This document shows, in pieces, positions 30,256-40,230 of a stretch of 64,000 nucleotides of DNA (its first letter is position 1; each line of letters begins with the position of its first letter). The position numbers and the translations under genes were made by a program. Under the pieces are notes generated by a model. The model saw only the letters and a program-made list of their open reading frames with translations, searched no databases and was not told where the DNA came from. Origin of the DNA: an uncultured Gemmatimonadota bacterium (GTDB lineage: Bacteria > JAAXHH01); assembly GCA_951812955.1 (NCBI GenBank), contig OX638340.1:1024001-1088000 (forward strand), in the 5' to 3' direction.

Positions 30256-31050
30256 CTATCCGCCGTCCTCCAGCTCAGCCAGAGTCTCCAGCACCCCCTG
30301 CTGGATGAACTCCTCGTAGGCGTCCCGTGTCGGTAGTTCGGCCGCCTTCGACAGCATTTTCGTGGCCCGCGCCCGGCCGTCCTCGCGATCAAGATATGGA
30401 AGCCTGAGCGCATATTCAAACAGCACGACCTTCGAGTCCGGAGCTAGCTCCAGAGCCCGCTCGTAATGGATGACGGCGTTTTTCCGATTCCCCTTGTACA
30501 AGAACCGTGCAACGCGCCCGGCACGTGCGATGTCGGCGTGCCAGCCCCCTAAGGCCATATGCGCCTCTGCGAAGTCGGGGGAGATGGTGAGCGCGGTCTC
30601 GAGCAAATCGCGTGCCCTGCCCGCCAGACCTCGGCGAAATGCAGTTAGTTTACCGATACTCTGTGCATATCGGCCAACAGCGTGCGCGGATTGGAAATAT
30701 GCTTCGGAATTGGTCGAATCGATGCGCACTGCTTCTTCCCCGTACTCTATCGCGCGTTCCAAAATACCGTTCCGGTCCTCCTCAGTCGCCACATGGTGGC
30801 CGTACACCGCGAGCGATTGCGCCGCAAGGGCGTAGCCTTCGGATGTACCGACGGCTGACGCGAGATCCGCCGCCTCGAGAAAACGGCCTTCCTCGAAATC
30901 GGTCCTTGCTTCATCGATCGACTGCGCGTTCGCGCCAGCCGGGTCGGCCAGGCTGGCCGCAATAATCACGAATCCCGCAACTGCCACGAAACGGACAACT
31001 GCCGCGAATCCCGCAACGACTGCGAAACGGTAAAACTGGGTAAGGGTCAT
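30256..31050 (-). CDS. secreted/periplasmic TPR (Sel1/TPR-like) repeat protein
   Basis: 264 aa. A hydrophobic N-terminus ends ...PAGANA|Q, followed by helical repeat segments (...AEAHMALGGWHADIA..., ...AVIHYERALELAPDS...). Confidence 0.6.
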   Translation of the reverse strand: MTLTQFYRFAVVAGFAAVVRFVAVAGFVIIAASLADPAGANAQSIDEARTDFEEGRFLEAADLASAVGTSEGYALAAQSLAVYGHHVATEEDRNGILERAIEYGEEAVRIDSTNSEAYFQSAHAVGRYAQSIGKLTAFRRGLAGRARDLLETALTISPDFAEAHMALGGWHADIARAGRVARFLYKGNRKNAVIHYERALELAPDSKVVLFEYALRLPYLDREDGRARATKMLSKAAELPTRDAYEEFIQQGVLETLAELEDGG

Positions 31051-31208
31051 CTGATATCCCCAGTTCTATTCAGCGGACGGGTACTCGCATCTCGGCTCGA
31101 CGCTTTAGTGTCTTTCAGCGATCAGTCATGCGAATCCACACCATATGGACAAACGCGGTGCTGCCCGACGGCATCGGCTATGGACCGATTCGACTAGGTC
31201 AACGGGGT

Positions 31209-32252
31209 CTAAAGAGGTTTACGAGCCAGGAAACAGTACAGCGGCGTGAAGATACCCGACCTGCCGCCCTCGACATAAGCGTCAGCAGTTCGATCCAGGA
31301 GTCGGACCACTTCCGAATACCCCTTCGGAATCAGACTTAGCGCTTCGGCCATCTTCGATCCTGCGATCACGGCCTTGCGACCCCAAGGGAGCCTGTTCAG
31401 TGCGTTCCCCAAAGTCCCATGCCGACTCTCCATTGGCCGATACCAAGGCGTGGAGGGTTCATTCCGGACGTCTCGGTCCATCCCTTCGATGACGTGGAAT
31501 CCCGCCGCTTCAAGCCCGTGATTCACTTCCCTGAACGTCGCAATGTCGTTCAGCGCAATGCCGCGCATGAGGTCCTGCTCAATGGCCCGGTGCCGGTTGT
31601 CTTTCGGATCGAATTTCTCGGTCAGACACATTTCCTGACCCCAAAACAGGGCTCCTGGTTTGAGTACGCGGAAGATCTCCGCGAAAGCGCGTTCCTTGTC
31701 TGGCGCGTGGCACGTTGACTCGATGGCATAGGCTCGGTCAAACGTCTCGTCCTCAATGCCGCCCATATCCATGAAGCTACACGTCTCGTAATCGACCATG
31801 TGGCCGAGTCCCGCTTCAGCGTTCAACCGCTTTGCCTTATCCAATTGGAGTTCGTTGATGTTGATTCCGACAACCCGGACGCCGGCCTCCCGGACGACGC
31901 GACGCATCGGACCGCCGATTCCACAACCAACGTCGGCCACCGTCATACCCTGCTCCAACTCCAGCTTCGAGATCATCAACCGCTGATGCCGGATTATGGA
32001 TTCCTCCAGGCTTTCATCGGGCTTTAGTGGCGCGAAGTGGAGGGATTCGCTCCAACCCCACACCATTAACCCGCTGCAAAGATCATAGTACTCTTTCACT
32101 GTTTCTGTGTGGTCGTACTCATACGCGCCATCGGCCCCCGGGACCGCCCGGGCTGCCCGGGCGGTCCAGCCTTCAAGGCGCTGCGCGCGACTCTTGACGT
32201 CCGATCCCCGGCTCGCATCTTTCAGTTCTCTGGATAGTTTGCCCATCGCCAT
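31209..32252 (-). CDS. sterol C-24 methyltransferase (ERG6/SMT family, with Sterol_MT_C-type C-terminus)
   Basis: The protein is collinear with my recollection of yeast ERG6. YYDLCSGLMVWGWSESLHF corresponds to YYNVVTDFYEYGWGSSFHF, DVGCGIGGP to DVGCGVGGP, AIESTCHAP to AIEATCHAP, FRVLKPG to YKVLKPG, and C-terminal IFTPLYCFLARKP to LFTPMMLFVARKP. Confidence 0.85.
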   Translation of the reverse strand: MAMGKLSRELKDASRGSDVKSRAQRLEGWTARAARAVPGADGAYEYDHTETVKEYYDLCSGLMVWGWSESLHFAPLKPDESLEESIIRHQRLMISKLELEQGMTVADVGCGIGGPMRRVVREAGVRVVGININELQLDKAKRLNAEAGLGHMVDYETCSFMDMGGIEDETFDRAYAIESTCHAPDKERAFAEIFRVLKPGALFWGQEMCLTEKFDPKDNRHRAIEQDLMRGIALNDIATFREVNHGLEAAGFHVIEGMDRDVRNEPSTPWYRPMESRHGTLGNALNRLPWGRKAVIAGSKMAEALSLIPKGYSEVVRLLDRTADAYVEGGRSGIFTPLYCFLARKPL

Positions 32253-38703: not shown

Positions 38704-38709
38704 GCGAAT

Positions 38710-40230
38710 TCACTCCGTTGGAAGGCGAGAGGAAGAGCGCCGACCTTGCTGATGCTGAAGGAGGCCCTCCCGGTCGGCTGCGGTCCAGGTACCGCCCAGC
38801 GCGCGATGGAGTGCCAGACGTGCGTAGCCCAGATCGCGCAATGCTGCCGAGTGTATCGATTGCGTGGCCAACCGGGACTGTTCAGCTGCCAGGAACGCTT
38901 CGTATTCCCCCACACCATACAGGTATTTTCGCTCCAGTAACGCGGATTGAGCCCGAGTTTCTTCGGTGAGGGAAACCAGCAGCGCGTGGCGCCTGCGGCT
39001 GGCTTCCAATGCCGTCAGGGCAATTTCAACCTCGTTAACCGCGGTTACCACGGCACGGCCGTATGCGGCCGCGGCCTCGTTCAACCTGGCCTCTGCCAGC
39101 GCGATGTTGCTTCGAATCCGGGAGCCCTGGAAAACGGGACCGAGCAGATTCGCAGTGAGGTTTCGGAACCATTGATCCGGATCGAACCATTCGCTTGAAT
39201 CCGTGCTCTGAAGTCCGATCGCGCCCTGCAGAGACAGCCTCGGAAGCAGGTCCGCCCGTCGCGCGCCCACCGAGAACCGTGCCGCCTCCACGCGCTGCAT
39301 GGCCGCAAGGACGTCGGGACGTTGGACCATGAGATCGGCAGGAATGCCGGCGGGAACGGGATCGAGTACGGGAGATGGAGCGGGCGCATCGGAGAGCAAG
39401 TGCGCCAGGTCGGCCCGGAAGCCACCCATGAGTATCCACAGCCGACCCTCGGCGTCCGCCCGCAGGGCTTCGATCCGCGGCAATTCCGCCTGGGCCTCAC
39501 GCAGACTTCGACGGGCGGCGTGCAGGCCGACCAGGTCGGCTAACCCGCTTTCATACCGGGACCCGGCCAGTGATTCCTGTTGTTCCAGGATCGCCACGAT
39601 TTCAAAGGCGAACCGCTGCTGCTGGCGCAGATTCACGATTTCCAGGTAGGTCCGTACGGTCTCCGCCAGCACGCCCAGGTTTGCACTCAGATAGTCCGCC
39701 TCCGTAGCCACCAACTCGGCAGCCGCGGCGCGCGTGTCGTTGCGGTTGCGGCCCCAGAAATCCAGCTCGTAGGCGAATTCAACGCTCAGGGCATAGGTCG
39801 TCAGTCCGAGCCTGTCCGGGATATCCACTCCGGCCGCGCCGAGTACGTCAGGATCCAGACCGACCTCTTCCAGTTGCGCTCCTATGCCGGCATTCGTCGG
39901 ACCGTCGGATTCGCTCACGTTCACCGTCGGCCGCAGCAACGGAAACACCGCCGACCCGGCTATGCCTTTCCGCATCCTGGCCTGATGAACTCTGGCGACC
40001 GCTCCGGCCAGGTCGAAATTAGAAGAAAGCACTTCTTCGATTACCCGGTCGAGGACCGGATCTTCGAATGACTTCCACCACTCCAGGGGTCGGTATACGC
40101 CGGAATCCTCGCTGGCAGTAAATGCGCCGGGTGTTTCCGGCACCGATTCGAGCACCGGTAGATTCCGGTTCGGAGCAAGGGAACATGCCGAGAGGAAAAG
40201 GAAAGCAAACAACGGTATTAATCGTCCCAT
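38710..40230 (-). CDS. TolC/NodT-type outer-membrane efflux lipoprotein
   Basis: 506 aa with lipobox LFLSAC and two OEP-type repeats. It ends 6 nt upstream of the MFP start. Confidence 0.8.
   Translation of the reverse strand: MGRLIPLFAFLFLSACSLAPNRNLPVLESVPETPGAFTASEDSGVYRPLEWWKSFEDPVLDRVIEEVLSSNFDLAGAVARVHQARMRKGIAGSAVFPLLRPTVNVSESDGPTNAGIGAQLEEVGLDPDVLGAAGVDIPDRLGLTTYALSVEFAYELDFWGRNRNDTRAAAAELVATEADYLSANLGVLAETVRTYLEIVNLRQQQRFAFEIVAILEQQESLAGSRYESGLADLVGLHAARRSLREAQAELPRIEALRADAEGRLWILMGGFRADLAHLLSDAPAPSPVLDPVPAGIPADLMVQRPDVLAAMQRVEAARFSVGARRADLLPRLSLQGAIGLQSTDSSEWFDPDQWFRNLTANLLGPVFQGSRIRSNIALAEARLNEAAAAYGRAVVTAVNEVEIALTALEASRRRHALLVSLTEETRAQSALLERKYLYGVGEYEAFLAAEQSRLATQSIHSAALRDLGYARLALHRALGGTWTAADREGLLQHQQGRRSSSRLPTE

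Follow-up and report, generated by a model that had tools for sequence, protein, structure and literature searches.

A mobile gene cassette of sponge and coral symbionts may couple the tailoring of a sterol-like lipid to its export

The protein family GPP34_L, in which a GPP34 domain is fused to a cytochrome P450, has been described as monophyletic, about 675 aa long and exclusive to sponge symbionts of many phyla; it occurs in ~93% of symbiotic Gemmatimonadota and Latescibacterota, is absent in their free-living relatives and is expressed in Aplysina (Microbiome 2025, PMC11706023). GPP34 is a fold that binds phosphatidylinositol 4-phosphate (PI4P) in eukaryotes, and the role proposed for GPP34 in the symbionts is that of a secreted, PI4P-binding effector that halts phagosome maturation (PMC11706023). 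Bacterial sterol trafficking is in turn represented by the BstABC system of Methylococcus capsulatus, whose transporter BstA belongs to Pfam MMPL, and transporters of the HpnN/MmpL/BstA type are envelope-lipid carriers that move hydrophobic molecules outward (PMC10942540); enrichment of sterol methyltransferases (SMTs) in sponge symbionts has already been published as well (PMC9531527, PMC10070321). Here we analyze a 64,000-nt window (the whole stretch of DNA under study) of the 3.81-Mb, single-contig genome of an uncultured Gemmatimonadota bacterium (contig OX638340.1; completeness 97.6%), in which a GPP34_L gene lies between the genes of an AcrB-type tripartite RND pump and that of an SMT-like methyltransferase. 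The gene content, linkage and distribution of this locus suggest a mobile cassette, a hallmark of sponge and coral symbionts, that couples tailoring of a sterol-like isoprenoid lipid to export, a reading to which we give a slightly better than even chance. A sterol-type substrate, already proposed in a first-pass annotation of the DNA, appears to be the best-supported guess, as four family-level pointers lead to steroids or triterpenoids (the SMT family, a KshA-like Rieske oxygenase, a sterol-sensing MMPL transporter in other carriers and a P450 near CYP51/CYP46A1), and the fusion is linked to sterol clusters elsewhere.

The first-pass annotation had placed six closely packed open reading frames (ORFs) on the minus strand, and all six, with their Pfam names and each of the junctions between them, are borne out by the sequence. 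In the direction of transcription they encode the outer-membrane factor (OMF; NodT/TolC-type, 38710–40230, Pfam OEP 3.3e-37) and periplasmic adaptor (MFP; 37486–38703, HlyD_3) of a tripartite pump, an AcrB-type RND permease of 1057 aa (34316–37489, ACR_tran 1.4e-159, 533 bits), the GPP34-cytochrome P450 fusion of 675 aa (32289–34316, GPP34 1.9e-28 and p450 6.4e-37), an SMT-like C-methyltransferase of 347 aa that depends on S-adenosylmethionine (SAM) and belongs to what we call class A below (31209–32252, Sterol_MT_C 2.6e-15), and a TPR protein with a hydrophobic N-terminus (30256–31050, Pfam TPR families). Read directly from the sequence, the OMF stop codon TGA is followed after 6 nt by the ATG of the MFP gene, the MFP and RND genes share an ATGA overlap, and the RND and P450 genes meet at cacTAATGgct, with GGAGG 5 nt upstream of the TAATG; the P450 gene starts at 34316, and an alternative TTG start at 34406 falls within the RND gene. 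A 36-nt spacer with AGGGGA ahead of the SMT start codon ATG separates the P450 and SMT genes, and the TPR gene lies 158 nt beyond the latter. Promoter- and terminator-like consensus sites are no more frequent within the operon than in shuffled sequence and are uninformative either way. The unit extends further than the minus-strand genes to which the first pass had confined it: two conserved partners on the plus strand, encoding a flavin adenine dinucleotide (FAD)-dependent oxidoreductase of the amine-oxidase family (459 aa, 27466–28845, Amino_oxidase and NAD_binding_8) and a KshA-like Rieske non-heme-iron oxygenase (358 aa, 29091–30167, Rieske 8e-16 and KshA_C 2.8e-22), form a transcription unit that converges on the operon, with the FAD oxidoreductase gene upstream.

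Relatives of the fusion were found at 77 loci from 185,579 species genomes; the ORFs of these loci were called crudely and their products clustered, and habitats were taken from record titles. By those titles nearly all are metagenome-assembled genomes (MAGs) from sponges (Aplysina, Ircinia, Rhopaloeides and Coscinoderma, with carriers such as 'Poriferihabitaceae' and 'Palauibacter') or from corals (Porites), a few titles giving no habitat, which agrees with the restriction of GPP34_L to sponge-associated bacteria. The carriers belong to about seven named phyla: Gemmatimonadota, Latescibacterota, Chloroflexota, Actinomycetota, Nitrospirota, Pseudomonadota and Bacteroidota (Rhodothermales). Clustering recovered the P450 in 65 loci and the methyltransferase in 47. 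The RND gene adjoins the P450 gene in the 28 loci with a full-length RND, P450 and SMT genes are adjacent in most SMT-bearing loci, and sponge metagenome contigs whose genes were called independently by ENA and JGI have an identical gene order. The arrangement is not due to chance: the first-pass proposal that enzymes and pump form one unit, together with its suggestion to look for the same synteny in relatives, is upheld by an adjacency kept across phyla and across horizontal transfer events.

Such transfer emerges from the comparison of the cassette with RpoB. Compared with the window RpoB, that of one MAG is 99% identical and those of five others 94-95%, and identity falls to 61-65% for Latescibacterota-labelled carriers and to 55-56% for Palauibacter and Rhodothermales; in those distant genomes the RND permease is nonetheless 82-93%, the P450 67-85% and the SMT 72-88% identical. 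The high identity of the cassette despite low RpoB identity therefore argues for transfer and for strong purifying selection on the whole unit. Flanking genes differ between carrier groups. These comparisons indicate that the cassette has been transferred between phyla and kept intact, with horizontal passage among at least six phyla inside animal hosts.

In the fusion, the Pfam GPP34 match covers residues 45-245 and that to p450 extends to residue 693 (in the numbering of the longer ORF); the protein carries GTHMCLG as its heme-Cys motif, ExxR and, in the I-helix, GDT (LGDTFS), lacks a signal peptide and has full-length relatives with both domains at 55–94% identity. In architecture, length, sponge restriction and monophyly it is a member of GPP34_L; unlike the published account (PMC11706023), which leaves neighbors, lipids and transporters aside, we find it at the core of a cassette for which lipid tailoring and transport are the predicted functions. 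It is the sole P450 of the genome. CYP51 and CYP46A1 are among its best matches in sequence and in fold, and an AlphaFold2 model (pLDDT 77.6, pTM 0.65) features two folded domains whose interface is not resolved and, as top fold match, the lanosterol-bound CYP51, barely ahead of other P450s. Identity as CYP51 was rejected, as the best CYP51 match (~1e-15) is level with unrelated P450s, while a true CYP51 from another carrier locus (L090) reaches 1e-104; assignment to a family by structure failed likewise, with CYP51, CYP184, BM3 and CYP46A1 all at ~1e-14 in Foldseek.

A single-sequence search of the GPP34 domain against the PDB gave no match, and its profile matches GOLPH3/Vps74 structures weakly (1.7e-9, 40 bits). 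This match, together with PI4P binding by GPP34 in eukaryotes, restriction of the family to sponge symbionts and expression in the host, would suit the published view in which GPP34 proteins, the fusion included, are secreted effectors that bind host PI4P and block phagosome maturation (PMC11706023). We consider this very unlikely for the fusion, which has no signal sequence, contains an enzyme in need of heme and a cytoplasmic electron supply, begins on the stop codon of the RND permease gene and, throughout the lineages examined, is surrounded by lipid transporters and by lipid-tailoring enzymes of the cytoplasm. Moreover, in an alignment that is itself weak, three of the four PI4P-contacting residues of GOLPH3 (R90, R171 and R174) are not conserved, the GPP34 domain having I/V, E and I in their place. 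The study behind the effector view examined the flanks of the short GPP34 form only, leaving the neighbors of the long form, signal peptides and binding residues aside, and the words sterol, lipid, methyltransferase, RND, MMPL, operon and synteny do not occur in its text (PMC11706023).

According to the same study, other sponge symbionts have GPP34 domains joined to a Rieske domain or to an ABC ATPase (PMC11706023). The window genome has two GPP34 genes, the second of which encodes a short form of 237 aa (G000:C1:178855-179448, L086:6808-7521, minus strand) just downstream of a TonB-dependent outer-membrane receptor gene on the same strand (L086:7655-10258). Because of the Rieske and ABC fusions and the TonB-adjacent short GPP34, an adaptor role of GPP34 in envelope lipid handling fits better than that of a secreted effector. 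On another contig (L100) a deep-branching pair of SMT and GPP34-P450 adjoins a TonB-dependent receptor as well, and receptors beside GPP34 genes may hint at an uptake route. In some carriers GPP34-P450 occurs as two paralogues that lie in tandem or within a few kb of each other (L037:7327-9279 and 10043-11995; L052:10064-12016 and 12148-14172; L057:1523-3547 and 10001-12031), which fits the 1-6 copies of GPP34 that have been published for single genomes.

All three pump components are encoded together, as in tripartite HAE1-type systems. The OMF and MFP exceed their NCBIfam cut-offs (TIGR01845, 241 bits vs 210; TIGR01730, 165.7 bits vs 94.9), the ACR_tran match of the 12-transmembrane-helix permease spans 1016 of 1021 profile positions, and the closest solved structures of the permease are HAE1 pumps (1e-72 to 1e-58), with AcrB, MexB and MdtB nearest; its best NCBIfam subfamily, at 412 bits, stays far below the multidrug-pump cut-off of 1250. 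The permease has no match to the NCBIfam model of BstA, and no BstB-like (phosphonate-binding-type) protein was seen among the annotated neighbors. The contrast with BstABC drawn in the first pass, and the placement of the permease relative to HAE1 pumps and BstA that it had suggested, thus come out in favor of an AcrB-type pump, not one of the MMPL/HpnN type to which BstA belongs. The permease is 82-95% identical to its relatives and more conserved than P450 and SMT in all 28 AcrB-type loci, where median identities are 87% for RND, 77% for SMT, 75% for P450, 74% for MFP and 70% for OMF; the last is optional, being recovered in 19 loci by ORF clustering and as a full-length match in 17 loci that also carry a full RND.

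The transporter next to the fusion changes with lineage. Wherever a Gemmatimonadota or Latescibacterota locus includes sequence upstream of the fusion, an AcrB-type permease gene lies directly 5' of it, as a rule with the MFP gene and often with the OMF gene ahead, and tblastn places such a permease in the lone Rhodothermales locus (L027) too. Dehalococcoidia, other Chloroflexota and Acidimicrobiia have no pump, and encode one to two genes from the fusion an 828-aa MMPL protein with sterol-sensing/Patched-domain matches and weak similarity to HAE3, HpnN and BstA; Gammaproteobacteria have a second, distinct MMPL family near the fusion, and Nitrospirota loci alone lack a neighboring transporter. 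Against the NCBIfam BstA model the MMPL types score 29-37 bits, with a cut-off of 1400. Overall, a transporter of the RND superfamily stands within two genes of the fusion in ~55 of 66 loci, and three non-orthologous types, in differing orientations, adjoin it in different lineages. That three non-orthologous transporters of one superfamily stand beside the same enzyme is strong evidence for functional coupling.

Compared with BstABC of M. capsulatus (PMC10942540), the locus shares an RND-superfamily inner-membrane transporter that is encoded beside enzymes of sterol type and presumably moves sterol outward, and the MMPL transporters of other carriers belong to the Pfam family of BstA and HpnN; unlike BstABC, the window holds a complete AcrB-type OMF-MFP-RND pump, and its genome makes no sterol. 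With HpnN/MmpL exporters and AcrAB-TolC-type HAE1 pumps it shares proton-driven RND export of hydrophobic compounds from the inner membrane, with OMF, MFP and permease all present, yet the window permease is far under multidrug cut-offs and shows unusual conservation across phyla, and its gene in the closest relatives is translationally coupled to one for a biosynthetic-type enzyme.

An AcrB-type exporter coupled to oxidizing enzymes might alternatively serve detoxification, steroidal or terpenoid toxins of the sponge or of neighbors being oxidized, methylated and expelled in the manner of phases I, II and III. A genome devoid of a biosynthetic substrate source and a spread among co-resident symbionts that resembles that of resistance traits would fit such a module, as would the very strong conservation of the RND permease, which implies one defined substrate. 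We nevertheless regard it as unlikely: enzymes of the SMT family C-methylate olefins and do not conjugate polar groups, the location of the fusion beside the bacterium's own sterol genes in Nitrospirota and Arenicellales (below) fits a wanted lipid better than a toxin, and transporters of the MMPL/HpnN/BstA type carry envelope lipids (PMC10942540).

The methyltransferase scores 56.7 bits against Sterol_MT_C (cut-off 21.7), carries the SAM motif DVGCGIGGP (DxGxGxxGP) and is collinear with fungal ERG6, with 33% identity over 326 aa. Relatives at E<=1e-30 numbered 245 proteins from 1.8 billion cluster representatives, and in a tree of 141 rows (quick search, midpoint-rooted, with no non-SMT outgroup) the P450-linked SMTs form one clade, class A (SH-aLRT 100, stem 0.52), nested among fungal ERG6, algal SMTs and canonical bacterial SMTs of sponge symbionts; its deep-branching member P0246 also adjoins a GPP34-P450 gene. 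The "very strong" SMT call of the first pass therefore stands at the level of the family, and the grouping it wanted checked falls within the SMTs of this tree, but the protein belongs to a divergent subclade in which Region I is remodeled. In the window SMT this region reads LMVWGWSESLHF, where canonical SMTs have FYEYGWGxSFHF, so that GWSESLHF, with LMVW ahead of it, replaces GWGxxFHF and the aromatic Y/F81 and E82 that precede it. Across class A, Region I is YYDLC[SN][GE]FMV[WFY]GW[GSN]ESLHFAPL, as against the canonical YYDLVTDFYEYGWGxSFHFAPR, with the substitutions Y81M, E82V (in most members), F89L and T78S/N and with APL for APR; G86 varies among G, S and N, the window copy combining G86S with T78S, and Region IV is altered as well.

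With ERG6/SMT1 and the SMTs of sponge symbionts (Brown et al. 2023, PMC10070321) the window protein shares Sterol_MT_C, the SAM motif, E195, G84, W85, H90 and F91; unlike them, class A is a separate long-stem clade with changed Regions I and IV, and it is linked to GPP34-P450, not to an oxidosqualene cyclase (OSC), CYP51 or SdmAB. Some genomes with a class-A protein encode, at other sites, canonical SMTs that are 38-45% identical to it. The names of class-A contigs (JGI, ENA) match none of the assayed SMT names quoted in the accessible part of Brown et al. 2023. Class A is a distinct SMT subfamily that probably differs in substrate or regiochemistry.

The Rieske oxygenase is conserved in 42 loci and is the sole KshA_C protein of the window genome. 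Its CPH...CPFH cluster ligands and DIGHLRYVH iron motif are intact, it scores 80 bits against KshA_C (cut-off 23.3), and its closest solved structures are 3-ketosteroid 9-alpha-hydroxylases (KshA; 1e-22). It resembles KshA in its Rieske and KshA_C domains and in its metal ligands, and differs from it in that the match reaches only ~83 bits over residues 14-192 and the gene context is not catabolic; no gene for a KshB-type reductase was seen among the cassette genes. SdmA and Neverland/DAF-36 are further Rieske oxygenases that act on steroids; against the NCBIfam SdmA model, with its cut-off of 600, the window enzyme scores 32 bits. The FAD oxidoreductase is conserved in 28 loci, with LkcE as its closest solved structure (6e-26). 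The TPR gene, found in 11 closely related loci only, is a lineage-specific accessory; considered as a core part or an analogue of BstC, it was rejected as core in view of that spread and of the lack of any NCBIfam match for the protein, and the sole basis for calling the protein secreted, as the first pass had done, is its hydrophobic N-terminus.

If the KshA homologue and the P450 initiated the breakdown of rings and side chains of host sterols as a carbon source (9,10-seco pathway), the KshA-like Rieske gene would be accounted for; a KshA cluster confined to sponges has been reported, as has an enrichment of sponge metagenomes in genes for steroid degradation (PMC5790920). Neither a methyltransferase nor an export pump would make sense in catabolism, however, the genome holds a single KshA_C gene and a single P450, and no KstD- or Hsa-type enzyme appears among the annotated genes of the cassette and its neighborhood, although no genome-wide search for HsaC, HsaD and KstD was made; we regard catabolism as highly improbable.

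Where the substrate would come from can be approached through the genomes of the carriers. The first-pass annotation had left its source as endogenous or scavenged and had proposed to look for squalene epoxidase and OSC; neither is present in the window genome, which has no squalene-hopene cyclase (SHC) or OSC domain, so that an endogenous sterol or hopanoid was rejected and scavenging is the plausible part of that proposal. The genome does make squalene, as HpnC, HpnD and HpnE score above NCBIfam equivalog cut-offs (G000:C1:2596000-2599436, L085:6000-9436, minus strand), and no known consumer of squalene was found in it. Among 50 carrier genomes checked, the AcrB-type carriers all lack cyclase and squalene epoxidase, the Dehalococcoidia have an SHC only, and 13 (Acidimicrobiia, Nitrospirota, some Proteobacteria and one Chloroflexota genome) have SE-OSC fusions, proteins of ~1150 aa that join a squalene epoxidase (SE, FAD_binding_3) to a complete OSC. 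Such fusions (for example L090:1597-5088, plus strand; L095:1999-5457, minus; L096:1504-4974, plus; L042:14613-18020, minus) occur in sponge-symbiont Arenicellales, Poriferihabitaceae, Alphaproteobacteria, Nitrospirales and Acidimicrobiia, with CYP51, ERG24 or a canonical SMT alongside in the loci examined.

In two Nitrospirota loci (L039, L042) and one of Arenicellales (L059) GPP34-P450 and the FAD oxidoreductase adjoin a de novo sterol cluster that contains an SE-OSC fusion, as does an MMPL gene in L059. The FAD oxidoreductase gene sits between the fusion with P450 and the sterol genes in both lineages; the cluster of L059 includes a true CYP51 (1e-104 to the Methylococcus enzyme) and a canonical SMT, and that of L042 a P450 at the position of CYP51, ERG24 and a Rieske oxygenase with a VanA_C domain. 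Since the sole common denominator of the carriers is life in a sterol-rich animal, a sterol derived from the host or its community is favored.

The cassette might instead build and export a non-sterol isoprenoid of the symbiont's own making, such as a methylated, oxidized squalene or other polyprenoid. Squalene and botryococcene methyltransferases of the SMT family methylate a terminal isopropylidene olefin, as the SMT-like enzyme would here, and the remodeled Region I of class A would fit a changed substrate; the window genome has HpnC, HpnD and HpnE with no cyclase or epoxidase to use their product, and most of the closest AcrB-type carriers have HpnC. Nine cyclase-less AcrB-type carriers (G002, G012, G013, G016, G023-G025, G043 and G050) lack an HpnC-like gene at E<=1e-40, among them G002 with its near-identical cassette (RND 93%), which weakens endogenous squalene as a universal substrate. 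With a KshA-like Rieske enzyme, a fusion tied in other lineages to de novo sterol genes and to transporters with sterol-sensing domains, and a restriction to sterol-rich animal hosts that a non-sterol product leaves unexplained, we hold this alternative to be rather unlikely.

Tailoring of a sterol-like lipid coupled to its export can be pictured in five steps, for which we infer which lipid is acted on, in what order the reactions run, which way the product is transported and what GPP34 does. Because none of the four cassette enzymes has a signal peptide and they need SAM, heme and reductant, or FAD, they would work in the cytoplasm at the inner membrane face. A lipophilic substrate, most likely a sterol from the host or from neighboring symbionts, would partition or flip into the cytoplasmic membrane, where the P450 would oxidize it, the fused GPP34 domain probably holding the P450 at the membrane or handing over the lipid. 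The class-A SMT-like enzyme would then C-methylate the lipid at an olefin, and the KshA-like Rieske oxygenase and the FAD oxidoreductase would add further oxidation or desaturation. Finally, the AcrB-type tripartite pump would carry the product away from the inner membrane, either to the outer membrane or out of the cell, its role being taken in monoderm-type and proteobacterial carriers by the MMPL/sterol-sensing-domain transporter.

Several observations weigh against this picture. The window SMT lacks Region I residues that are conserved in every tested active SMT: 25 residues, including GWGxxFHF, Y74, T78 and E195, are common to all active SMTs, H90 is essential in yeast ERG6, and sponge-metagenome SMT homologues that deviate there are often inactive on desmosterol and 24-methylenecholesterol (preprint 10.64898/2025.12.19.695621). 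Class-A SMTs of Acidimicrobiia (L044, L045, L047, L060 and L061; e.g. L047:16021-17058) even carry H90Q (SLQF). Because these Region I residues are replaced, class A cannot be taken to act on Delta24 sterols. E-values and TM-scores hardly separate CYP51 from BM3, so that no sterol-specific CYP family can be assigned to the P450; LkcE, the nearest structure of the FAD enzyme, is unrelated to sterols; and no gene for a redox partner turned up in the cassette. Since AcrB-type pumps export, the cassette encodes no uptake route for an external sterol, and the window genome makes squalene, so that an endogenous acyclic substrate is possible. The H90Q proteins of Acidimicrobiia stay full-length and linked to GPP34-P450, MMPL and Rieske genes.

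Three further features lie near cassettes or in the window. In a Latescibacterota-like lineage (L104-L106:10758-13845) the cassette is followed by genes for an AMP-binding enzyme and a flavin-dependent tryptophan-halogenase-like protein, which may be lineage-specific extra tailoring genes. Divergent from the pump operon, a plus-strand pair at 40465–43085 encodes an ABC ATPase with two nucleotide-binding domains and a CbiQ-type transmembrane component of energy-coupling factor transporters; it is conserved in the closest relatives only and has no evident link to the cassette. Further on, G+C content is low in a plus-strand block at 51147–57900 (0.45 at 54-56 kb vs ~0.60 elsewhere) in which four ORFs (702, 283, 900 and 333 aa) follow one another; none of them matches Pfam, the first has weak PADLOC methyltransferase matches, and the block may be a horizontally acquired defense-type island.

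The view of the first pass that the arrangement had not been described applies to the operon context, as the searchable literature yielded no description of that context, of transporter replacement, of the class-A SMT subfamily or of the sterol-cluster link; the GPP34-P450 fusion itself is published (PMC11706023). Few genes that distinguish sponge symbionts from their free-living relatives are as widespread as GPP34-P450, and its sole published reading is that of a secreted phagosome-evasion effector; gene context points instead to lipid chemistry, likely on sterols, and to dedicated export, which offers a concrete, testable function for a major symbiosis marker. A full AcrB-type pump would be a third architecture among bacterial sterol and hopanoid trafficking systems, next to BstABC and HpnN, and because some carriers are without any cyclase, the symbionts would be handling sterols made by the host or by neighbors. 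The class-A SMT subfamily, as yet untested, also bears on the debate over the bacterial contribution to sponge sterol biomarkers. In a bolder version, which we think quite unlikely, the cassette would remodel host sterols, with class-A SMTs, given their altered carbocation-handling residues (Y81M, E82V, F89L and in some members H90Q), performing a side-chain alkylation unlike that of any known SMT (for instance at C-26/C-27, or one yielding a cyclopropane) and the pump returning the products to the holobiont. If so, the near-universal "GPP34" symbiosis marker would be a lipid enzyme, not a secreted effector, and part of the "unconventional" sterols of sponges and of the sterane biomarkers interpreted as sponge fossils would be bacterial work on animal sterols.

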